The notes under the pieces were generated by a model. That model saw only the letters and a program-made list of their open reading frames with translations, had not been told where the DNA came from and searched no databases. Of a stretch of 64,000 nucleotides of DNA, positions 3,336 to 5,351 are shown in pieces. Location: contig JACQWJ010000034.1 of assembly GCA_016209325.1 (NCBI GenBank), positions 220-64,219 on the forward strand, given 5' to 3'. Each line of letters begins with the position of its first letter. The stretch's first letter is position 1. The position numbers were made by a program, and so were the translations under genes. This stretch comes from Candidatus Uhrbacteria bacterium. GTDB taxonomy: Bacteria > Patescibacteriota > Patescibacteriia > UBA9934 > GWF2-40-263.

Positions 3336-5351
3336 TCAAGACGCCTTGCGCTTGGCGCGCTGGGAAAGATAGAGCGGGGGCGCGCGTAGGAACCGCGCGC
3401 GGATGGCCGTGTTGAGGTACGCATGCGTCACGGCAAGGGCGGTAAACATGCTGAGCAGCACGCCGATCGTAAGCGTCAGGGCAAACCCCTTGATGAAGCT
3501 CGAGCTAAAGGCGTACAGCACCCCGGCAGCGATAAGGGTCGTGAAGTTGCCGTCGCGGATCGCGGACCAGGCGCGCTTGAAAGCCTCGTCCAGGGCGCCA
3601 CGCAGGTCGCGTCCGGCTCGGATCTCCTCCTTCATACGCTCGAACACGAGGACGTTGGCATCCACCGCCATACCAAGCGACAAGATGAAACCAGCAACGC
3701 CGGCGAGCGTGATCGTCACCCCGAACAGCTTGTAGAAGGCCAGATTCAGTCCCGTGTACAGCAGCAGGGCGAGGACCGCGACGAGACCCGGCAGGCGGTA
3801 CATGAAAATCATGTACAGGGTCACGAGCGCGAACCCGAGTAGACCGGCAAACAGACTCTTCTGGAGCGAAACGGCGCCGAGGGCCGGTCCCACGGTCTGC
3901 TGGGAGACCAGGTGCACGGGCACAGGCAGGGCCCCCGCGTTCAGGCGTTGGGCCAGGAGCTTGGCCTCTTCTACCGTAAAGCCGCCGGTAATGACGGCCT
4001 GCCCGCCATAGATCGGCTCGTTGACCACAGGGATCGAGATGGGCTCCCCGTCGAGGAAGATGGCAATGGCTTGTCCGACGTTGCGCTTGGTGAGTTCGGC
4101 AAACAGGTCGCCGCCTTCCCCGTCGAACTGGAGGGACACGAACGGAGAGCTGGTCTGCTGGTCGAACTGGACCGTAGCGCGCGTGAGCTGCTTGCCCGAG
4201 AGGCCGGTGTTCTTCCAGGCATCTTCCGGCGCCGCGATGTCGTTCAGCGAGACCGACGGGATGACGACGCGCTGGACGTGGAAGGCGGGAACAACCTCCT
4301 CGGCTTGCTTGAGGATCATGTGGTAGCCGTATTCCGTCTCGACGACGTCCGACACCTGCCCAACAGGCGTCGTACGCGCGGCGAGCTCGAAGGCGGGGAC
4401 CGTCGCTCCGGGCTCAACCCACCCGAGATAGCCGCCCTCGGCGGCGGTGGAATAGTCCGTTGAAACCTCCTTGGCCTTTTCGGCAAAATTTTCGGCTGTC
4501 AGTTCGCTCTTCAGGTTCGTCAGAATGATGTTGGCTTCAATCGGGGGAATGGGGTTCTGGCATAGCGCCTTCCCCTCGAAGCACACGAGAATATGGGACA
4601 ACTCCATCCGCTTCGCCTCAGCCGCCCCAAGAAGACGGACGACCTCGAAGCCCTCGCGCGTTTCCAGGATGTTCGGTAGGACCGCGCCCGACTGGAGCGC
4701 CTGGTCGGAAACCGCCTGAATAATTTCCGCGTACGCGGGATTGGAAGCCGTCGCGGCCGGCAGGTCCTCGCCGCCGTATTCCGCAATGAGGGTCGAAAAA
4801 TCCTCGCCCCGCTTGGCGCGGGCGAGCGCCTCCTCGGCCTTGGTGCGGGCCGCGGCATTCCGCTCGTCCAGAGTCTTCTGCTCTTCGGGAGTCGCTTCCC
4901 GACCGACCTCTGCATTGACTTCCTTGAATTCGAGCACGGGGGTTTCGCCAATCTCGTTGATCGCCTGGCGGACATCGAGGACGCCCGCGAGCTCGACGAT
5001 CACACGCGAGGTGCCGCCGCTCGAGGTAGTCTGAACGACGGGCTCCGAAACGCCGAACGCGTTTACCCGGCGCTCGATCACGTCGCGGACGCCCTGCAGG
5101 GCCTCGTCGCGCTCAGCGGGATCGATCTGGGACATGTCCGCCTCGTACACGAGGTGAGCGCCTCCCTGAAGGTCGAGGCCCAGGCGGAAGGGAGTCTCCG
5201 AAACCTTCGCAAAGCCGAAATCGGCTCCGGTGGCCGAGGAAGCGGAAGAAACTCCCCGGTTCCAGAAGGCGGGGAAATCAAACGCGCCCATCAGAAGCGT
5301 AAGGAGAAGGAAAAAGACCGCCAGGGCGGGCGTTCTCCATGTTTTGGCCAT
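3336..5351 (-). CDS. secD: protein translocase subunit SecD with inserted parvulin-type PPIase (PrsA/SurA-like) module
   Basis: LGLDLQGGAHLVYE and AIFLDGEPISIPVVNEPIYGGQAVITGGF SecD P1 motifs plus C-terminal 6-TM bundle; ~220 aa insert includes ELSHILVCFEG...GGYLGWVEPGATVPAFE...TEYGYHMILKQ (PpiC/parvulin signature); likely start MAKTWRT. Confidence 0.85.
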   Translation of the reverse strand: MAKTWRTPALAVFFLLLTLLMGAFDFPAFWNRGVSSASSATGADFGFAKVSETPFRLGLDLQGGAHLVYEADMSQIDPAERDEALQGVRDVIERRVNAFGVSEPVVQTTSSGGTSRVIVELAGVLDVRQAINEIGETPVLEFKEVNAEVGREATPEEQKTLDERNAAARTKAEEALARAKRGEDFSTLIAEYGGEDLPAATASNPAYAEIIQAVSDQALQSGAVLPNILETREGFEVVRLLGAAEAKRMELSHILVCFEGKALCQNPIPPIEANIILTNLKSELTAENFAEKAKEVSTDYSTAAEGGYLGWVEPGATVPAFELAARTTPVGQVSDVVETEYGYHMILKQAEEVVPAFHVQRVVIPSVSLNDIAAPEDAWKNTGLSGKQLTRATVQFDQQTSSPFVSLQFDGEGGDLFAELTKRNVGQAIAIFLDGEPISIPVVNEPIYGGQAVITGGFTVEEAKLLAQRLNAGALPVPVHLVSQQTVGPALGAVSLQKSLFAGLLGFALVTLYMIFMYRLPGLVAVLALLLYTGLNLAFYKLFGVTITLAGVAGFILSLGMAVDANVLVFERMKEEIRAGRDLRGALDEAFKRAWSAIRDGNFTTLIAAGVLYAFSSSFIKGFALTLTIGVLLSMFTALAVTHAYLNTAIRARFLRAPPLYLSQRAKRKAS

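Follow-up and report, generated by a model that had tools for sequence, protein, structure and literature searches.

SecD is the proton-driven partner of SecF and helps to draw exported proteins out of SecYEG, and its P1 head is a swinging, substrate-binding subdomain. Precursor proteins make contact with a cavity in the P1 head of SecDF, and the head swings between membrane-facing and upright forms (PMC5974789). How unfolded chains are handed over from SecYEG to extracytoplasmic chaperones is still debated. The support for such a hand-over in Proteobacteria comes so far from PpiD, which is in physical contact with SecD in vivo, and from SurA. The latter binds the SecYEG-SecDF-YidC holo-translocon, as shown at low resolution, and all AlphaFold models of the same study set the P1 and P2 parvulin domains of SurA on the SecDF P1 head, a predicted contact (PMC9987972). 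Here we describe a secD gene of a Candidatus Uhrbacteria bacterium whose product carries two parvulin-like domains, one of them degenerate, within its own P1 domain. The gene lies on the minus strand of a 64,000-nucleotide stretch of DNA (assembly GCA_016209325.1, contig JACQWJ010000034.1, positions 220 to 64,219), referred to below as the window. Both building blocks of this fusion are well known, and hundreds of sequences that contain it are already public under the plain name 'SecD', an annotation that hides the extra function.

The secD gene and its insert

Judged by its sequence, the open reading frame (ORF) at 3336-5549, whose minus-strand codons provide the residue numbering used throughout, is a bona fide and probably functional SecD. 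The NCBIfam model TIGR01129 (secD) matches it at 372.3 bits, above a cut-off of 244.4, in two stretches that are parted by the insert, and TIGR00916 reaches 233 bits against a cut-off of 148.6. Its best matches among solved structures are the SecDF proteins 3AQP and 5XAN (Foldseek E 1e-23). The order of the Pfam domains, with Sec_GG at residues 120-140, SecD_1st at 153-212 (E 2.9e-16) and SecD_SecF_C at 547-708, agrees with the helix pattern of the structure model on a SecD topology: a first transmembrane segment (TM1), a large P1 domain composed of base and head, and five further transmembrane helices. TM1 places everything as far as TM2 outside the cytoplasm. The aspartate of TM4, found in the motif AVDANV (D564 in A1 numbering), is invariant in the homologues, and its counterpart in Thermus thermophilus (Tt) SecDF lies in AVDGNVLSFER. 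The neighbouring ORF is a secF, matched by TIGR00966 at 286 bits (cut-off 160; aligned from residue 38) and by PF02355 with an E value of 6.5e-55. For 65 homologues, the mean column identity reaches 85% over the P1 base, 78% over the P1 head and 75% over the membrane part; the first and second parts of the insert (ins1 and ins2) have 49% and 66%. The TIGR01129 score, the invariant aspartate, the adjacent secF and the high identity of base and head together argue for an intact SecD portion on which selection acts.

The insert comprises about 230 residues (ORF ~213-446, window 4212-4913, minus strand) and separates the N-terminal part of the P1 base from the P1 head. These bounds follow from the alignment to the Tt SecDF structure 3AQP, which covers Tt 30-120 and Tt 148-437. 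Tt 30-120 pairs with the N-terminal part of the base, the alignment of the head begins at Tt 148, and residues 148-370 of the query (ORF 214-436, 223 residues) stand in for just 27 residues, Tt 121-147. A first-pass annotation of the window had claimed that canonical SecD P1 motifs enclose an embedded parvulin peptidyl-prolyl isomerase (PPIase) domain at 4259-4916. All the motifs that it quoted are found in the translation of the ORF, and Pfam, NCBIfam and the 3AQP alignment place the parvulin within P1, at bounds that agree with the proposed ones. Scans with hidden Markov models (HMMs) return a rotamase domain above threshold along with the SecD/SecF domains.

Is the fusion real? Rotamase and SecD Pfam domains occur together in all of the 120 best database homologues, which align over their full length at 53-67% identity; those that are named belong to Candidatus Uhrbacteria or Patescibacteria and are annotated 'SecD', which bears out the earlier attribution of the DNA to a bacterium of the Candidate Phyla Radiation (CPR). 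In a search with the insert alone against 1.84 billion cluster representatives, SecD fusions account for 23 of the 150 best representatives at the 50%-identity level, with insert identity falling to about 31%. When one genome per GTDB species was considered, 349 stretches were found to encode a relative; the best 80 all lie within secD, and 76 of these 80 preserve the full order of N-terminal base, ins1, ins2, head and transmembrane part, contigs of 0.3-1.0 Mb among them. The titles of fusion-bearing records name Uhrbacteria, Falkowbacteria (placed by NCBI in the Patescibacteria/Parcubacteria group), Magasanikbacteria and Patescibacteria/Parcubacteria. Conservation of the fusion thus extends over Uhrbacteria-like lineages.

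In our estimation, the probability that the fusion is an artefact, whether of a frameshift, of a chimeric assembly or of a pseudogene in decay, is negligible. Nothing was found that speaks for such an origin, and the sole oddity is the longest ORF, which reaches 51 codons 5' of the likely start. Against it stand the uninterrupted reading frame across the SecD ORF, the uniform guanine-plus-cytosine (GC) content, an identical protein called on an independent assembly (P0001), a confident structure prediction across both junctions, the 120 full-length homologues and the common domain order in 76 of the best 80 species genomes. No frameshift or assembly join is present at the insert boundaries, and the conservation of the fusion rules out a frameshift, a chimera and a pseudogene.

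SecD probably starts at M52 (window 5396) and not at the first ATG, because the homologue consensus opens with MQTWKxKK and the longer ORF runs into the gene upstream. The start of secF is probably M35, near window 3322. In both genes the longest ORF runs 5' of the likely start, over window 5397-5549 for secD and 3323-3424 for secF, and overlaps the preceding gene; automatic start calls differ because of these overlaps, and P0001 is called from M67. A further observation concerns the labels of public records. Many third-party assemblies titled 'uncultured Gammaproteobacteria bacterium' carry a CPR-type fusion secD (L007, L010, L011, L018, L022, L025, L030 and others), and one of the records with this title and a fusion secD, OZ246408.1, is a 1.0-Mb chromosome. 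These titles look like placeholder or wrong taxonomy labels. The coordinates of all features are collected in the table.

Table. Features of the secD-secF locus and of the remaining window; coordinates are window positions, with the strand in brackets.
Feature	Position	Remarks
secD gene	3336..5396 (-)	stop codon included; within 737-codon ORF 3336-5549, probable start M52
TM1 of SecD, ORF ~73-96	5262..5333 (-)	hydrophobic stretch ALAVFFLLLTLLMGAFDFPAFW; covered by N-terminal helices of the model, residues 6-41
P1 base, N-terminal part (Sec_GG + SecD_1st), ORF 120-212	4914..5192 (-)	PF07549, PF21760; terminates in GETPVLEFKE
Insert part 1 (ins1), ORF 213-315	4605..4913 (-)	26-residue helix, then degenerate parvulin-like domain
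Insert part 2 (ins2), ORF 316-416	4302..4604 (-)	canonical parvulin PPIase domain, apparently active; H319, D365, T405, H410
Cys pair C323...C330	4560..4583 (-)	CFEGKALC (CFEGKxxC in the family); loop after beta-1 of the apparently active parvulin; invariant in A1 and A2
Trailing strand (ORF ~420-431, FHVQRVVI) and linker to P1 head	4212..4301 (-)	homologous to beta-1 of a next parvulin repeat
P1 head subdomain, ORF 447-543	3921..4211 (-)	PF22599 (SecDF_P1_head), E 8.9e-32, profile positions 18-114
TM2-TM6 of SecD, ORF 544-720	3390..3920 (-)	PF02355; includes conserved TM4 Asp in GMAVDANVLVFER
secF ORF	2417..3424 (-)	immediately 3' of secD; TIGR00966 and PF02355
Odd tRNA-like genes	6774-6849 (-), 43701-43777 (+); also L025:3487-3563 (+)	76-77 nt, short variable region
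MopE-type protein	59029-62910 (-)	1293 aa; 16 copies of putative metal-binding motif, PF11617, E 2e-144
LVIVD-repeat protein and FG-GAP-repeat subtilase, both large and probably secreted or at the surface; MshEN-domain ATPase of type II/IV secretion	24474-27323 (-), 28950-30713 (-), 52919-54967 (-)	

Architecture and probable origin of the parvulin module

The second part of the insert is a canonical parvulin domain that is apparently active. Rotamase and Rotamase_3 of Pfam match it at ORF 311-413 (E 5e-20), with 72.7 bits for PF00639 (cut-off 21.7) and 72.2 bits for PF13616 (cut-off 22.5), and it presents the parvulin fold, beta-alpha3-beta-alpha-beta2. The positions expected to be catalytic are largely kept among the 65 homologues: H319 in 62, D365 in 57, T405 in 63 and H410 in 64. 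A pair of cysteines, C323 and C330, follows the first strand of this domain. Both are present in 218 of the 221 family domains that cover those columns, both are missing in the other 3, and in none is just one retained. Since the two cysteines are kept or lost together, in a domain outside the membrane, they probably form an extracytoplasmic disulfide.

The first part of the insert had been described in the first-pass annotation as a helical, SurA/PrsA-like chaperone segment that precedes the parvulin. This claim fails: none of the SurA_N and PrsA-type families sought (PF09312, PF13624 and PF13623) has a match in the SecD ORF in the Pfam scan, and what stands in this place is a second, degenerate parvulin. 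Four lines of evidence identify ins1 as a degenerate parvulin-like domain with a leading helix of 26 residues. Rotamase_2 matches ORF 222-317 at 36 bits (cut-off 27); hhalign aligns ins1 to ins2 with a probability of 91% and an E value of 1.1e-6; an HMM of ins2 also matches the ins1 region in several relatives; and residues 165-358 of Escherichia coli SurA, its P1+P2 tandem, align over both halves of the insert. The catalytic histidines of ins1 are lost. The motif GFEVV, paired with GYHMI of ins2 in the hhalign alignment, stands where parvulins have GYHII, so that the catalytic His is absent, and the position that matches the second catalytic His is occupied by N, S, I or E in homologues; the catalytic residues are not kept. 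The NCBIfam models for SurA, PrsA and PpiD score about 35-40 bits on the SecD ORF against cut-offs of 343-493. Membership of the module in the SurA, PrsA or PpiD family was considered and is ruled out by the missing N/C chaperone domains and by these scores.

What fold do the two domains adopt together? A model of the insert alone was predicted with a mean predicted local distance difference test score (pLDDT) of 91.7 and a predicted template modelling score (pTM) of 0.76, and its top Foldseek match is SurA, over 226 columns across both domains. In insert numbering, ins1 is modelled at pLDDT >90 with helices at 9-34, 39-46 and 62-70 and strands at 49-54, 83-85 and 88-98. Two long strands tie the domains to each other: a continuous strand of 23 residues (88-110) is at once the last of ins1 and the first of ins2, and a second continuous strand of 23 residues (196-218, pLDDT ~97) begins as the last of ins2 and goes on as a further, trailing strand. 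Because ins1 lacks a first strand of its own and the trailing strand has no other pairing partner in this model, we infer, from the secondary-structure pattern only, that the trailing strand completes the ins1 sheet. The nearest free-standing relatives are proteins with three tandem parvulins, in which the trailing segment aligns to beta-1 of the following repeat, and this match to the first strand of a next repeat backs the strand-completion reading.

The module probably derives from a tandem-parvulin protein, as a piece of the array with shifted boundaries. It would combine a repeat that is missing its first strand with one full repeat and with the opening strand of a third. A fold-back of the last strand would bring both ends of the module side by side, a geometry that would suit insertion into a loop.

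Proposed role of the module and other features of the window

What are the implications of such a module for protein export? Based on these observations, we consider it reasonably probable that the module works in cis as a holdase or foldase for chains that leave SecY and the P1 head. In the protein, the self-contained twin-parvulin module is covalently inserted into the loop between P1 base and P1 head, directly ahead of the first strand of the head. The degenerate ins1 may act as an adapter or as a client-binding surface, and ins2 would contribute its retained parvulin catalytic residues and a loop that is putatively stapled by the disulfide. The module would thus take over in cis a task that falls to PpiD and SurA, acting in trans, in Proteobacteria and to the lipoprotein PrsA in Firmicutes, and the fusion would tether folding assistance to the translocation motor in a CPR cell with a small genome.

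Several points weigh against this proposal. The PPIase activity of parvulins is dispensable in vivo for the function of PrsA and SurA. The functional importance of the PpiD parvulin domain has also been questioned (PMC9643414), and conserved catalytic residues therefore do not prove that catalysis matters. The model of the whole protein is confident for each domain (pLDDT 84.8) and not for the arrangement of the domains (pTM 0.47), and the completion of the ins1 sheet by the trailing strand is read from secondary structure. The loop between base and head is enlarged in other SecD lineages as well: the head starts at ~148 in Thermus, at ~315-319 in E. coli-type SecD and at ~380 in the SecDF model NF009585, so that a large insert in this place is not necessarily a functional novelty. 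As for the first-pass suggestion that the module could substitute for a separate PrsA, a parvulin profile found no second parvulin in the six-frame translation of the 64-kb window, a local result, and no parvulin outside secD in the 0.85 Mb that flank secD in 80 relatives, which are local neighbourhoods and no genome census.

The doubts about catalysis lend themselves to another explanation, in which the module is purely a holdase or client-docking surface, like SurA P1 or the PpiD parvulin, and prolyl isomerisation has no physiological role. One of the two domains is already without catalytic residues, D365 is replaced by Gly in 8 of the 65 homologues, and the questioned importance of the PpiD parvulin (PMC9643414) points in the same direction. 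However, H319, T405 and H410 are kept in 62-64 of the 65 homologues and across 50%-identity clusters, and the higher conservation of ins2 over ins1 (66% against 49% mean column identity) fits a constraint on an active site. We hold this explanation to be possible and, on this evidence, unlikely.

The variable length of the loop raises a different question, namely whether the insert serves as a structural spacer or an interaction module and has nothing to do with client folding. It might dock SecDF to SecYEG, to YidC or to a component of the wall or S-layer, or merely lengthen P1 in the way of the extra pre-head region in E. coli-type SecD. The loop between base and head is particularly prone to vary in length, and the orientation of the module depends on the whole-protein model with its low pTM. 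A catalytic tetrad and a co-varying Cys pair that are retained over divergence to about 31% identity are not what is expected of a spacer, and the pairing of a P1 head with the same parvulin recurs in an unrelated small protein beside a protease gene, which points to client handling. We judge a spacer to be distinctly improbable.

Returning to the holdase/foldase in cis, we add a more far-reaching and tentative idea, which we rate as unlikely as it stands: a mechanical coupling might link the twin-parvulin module to the proton-driven swinging of the P1 head, giving these CPR bacteria a 'powered' SecDF that captures, folds and releases its clients. The fusion would then be evolutionary proof that, in a general and ancient step of bacterial secretion, the SecD P1 head hands chains over to parvulin chaperones. 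The conserved fusion of two parvulins beside the P1 head provides independent 'Rosetta-stone' evidence for a functional partnership of SecD and parvulins. It shows how reduced CPR genomes can consolidate functions of envelope biogenesis, and the fusion protein is a single-chain system for structural and biochemical study.

Elsewhere in the window, large proteins are encoded that are plausible, if speculative, clients of an enhanced export and folding system. The LVIVD-repeat protein and the subtilase with FG-GAP repeats are probably surface or secreted proteins, and the protein with MopE-type motifs is included among these candidates. The secretion ATPase with an MshEN domain is of the type IV pilus type. 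Three ORFs that encode 504-711 residues (44059-45708, 46335-48470 and 41431-42945) have no Pfam match at E 1e-5. The GC content falls to 0.48-0.52 at window 1-2000, 14001-16000 and 42001-44000, against about 0.60 elsewhere, and a small ORF in the first of these regions (770-1066) is, on our own reading of the sequence, presumably a GIY-YIG nuclease.

The window also contains two copies of an odd tRNA-like gene, and a third is found in a relative. Bacterial tRNA-Ser has a long variable arm, and a G3:U70 pair is an identity signature of alanyl-tRNA synthetase substrates and of transfer-messenger RNA (tmRNA). The odd tRNAs have an anticodon loop UUGAC, in which position 37 is a C and the anticodon UGA corresponds to the Ser codon UCA, and an acceptor stem with a G3:U70 pair, A73 and an encoded CCA. 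The three copies show compensatory changes in all four stems, and both window copies possess a common upstream box and a downstream terminator hairpin. Copy 2 is recognised by the Rfam tRNA model at 40.8 bits; the best match of copy 1 is to the tRNA-like ends of tmRNA. One relative (L037) has a normal tRNA-Ser(UGA) of 87 nucleotides. There is no sign of UCA reassignment in secD, as its one informative TCA codon is a conserved Ser. The odd tRNAs could be Ala-charged tRNAs that are not used in normal decoding, or mistranslating tRNAs.

Comparison with described systems

The fusion had been noted as unfamiliar from model organisms, and this impression holds for the solved structures and for the searchable model-organism literature. 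Foldseek and the 3AQP alignment revealed no solved structure with a SecD-parvulin fusion, and full-text literature searches found no description of one; a candidate paper names the two sought terms in contexts that have nothing to do with each other. The closest described relatives of the protein as a whole are the SecDF proteins of T. thermophilus and Deinococcus radiodurans (3AQP, 5YHF, 5XAN). They belong to the same family and share with it TM1, the P1 base and head, TM2-6, the TM4 Asp and the SecF partner. In contrast to these SecDF proteins, secD and secF are separate genes here, and where Thermus SecDF has a loop of 27 residues (Tt 121-147), the present protein has a twin-parvulin module of 223 residues.

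SurA of E. coli (1M5Y) likewise contains two tandem parvulins, the first inactive and the second active. This is a resemblance of arrangement and not of membership: the N-terminal and C-terminal core domains of SurA are absent here, and the SurA model NF008038 yields 35.1 bits, with a cut-off of 394. SurA itself is soluble in the periplasm and serves outer-membrane proteins, whereas the parvulins described here are covalently part of SecD and are predicted to be strand-swapped. PrsA of Bacillus subtilis and other Firmicutes (4WO7, 1ZK6, 6VJ4) is also a parvulin foldase that is tethered to the membrane and works outside the cytoplasm of a cell with one membrane. In sequence, PrsA matches the apparently active parvulin best (E 3e-10), and Foldseek alignments extend over 203-217 columns. 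However, PrsA forms dimers, is a lipoprotein and has one parvulin flanked by a helical N/C chaperone domain, whereas neither a lipobox nor an N/C domain is present here; the flanks of the parvulins are SecD P1, and the PrsA models NF002827 and NF002824 reach 39.6 bits (cut-off 343) and 39.7 bits (cut-off 360). In the PpiD-YfgM complex of E. coli (8ZHT), PpiD is a separate protein with its own transmembrane anchor, a ring-like periplasmic region of several domains and an inactive parvulin, and its model NF008054 gives 35.4 bits on the SecD ORF, with a cut-off of 493. The fusion unites in one chain a partnership that needs separate proteins in E. coli.

A parallel in domain content is the small protein mentioned above, a metagenomic family of 280-286 residues (P0268) that is known from four 90% clusters only (P0268 and P0271-P0273). 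It combines a SecDF P1-head domain with a parvulin that bears the same HxLxC...C pair and a GYHLIYK motif, and this parvulin is 54-65% identical to the parvulins of partial SecD-fusion matches. The family is stand-alone and runs in reverse order, from an N-terminal anchor through the head to the parvulin; both the SecD membrane domain and a degenerate first parvulin are missing from it. One complete gene lies at L081:3947-4807 (the gene is also found in L082-L084), directly 3' of a gene for a Trypsin_2 protease and 5' of a DUF3800 gene. In this family, a P1 head has been paired with this parvulin subtype a second time and independently, and its architecture supports a functional link between the P1 head of SecD and the parvulin.

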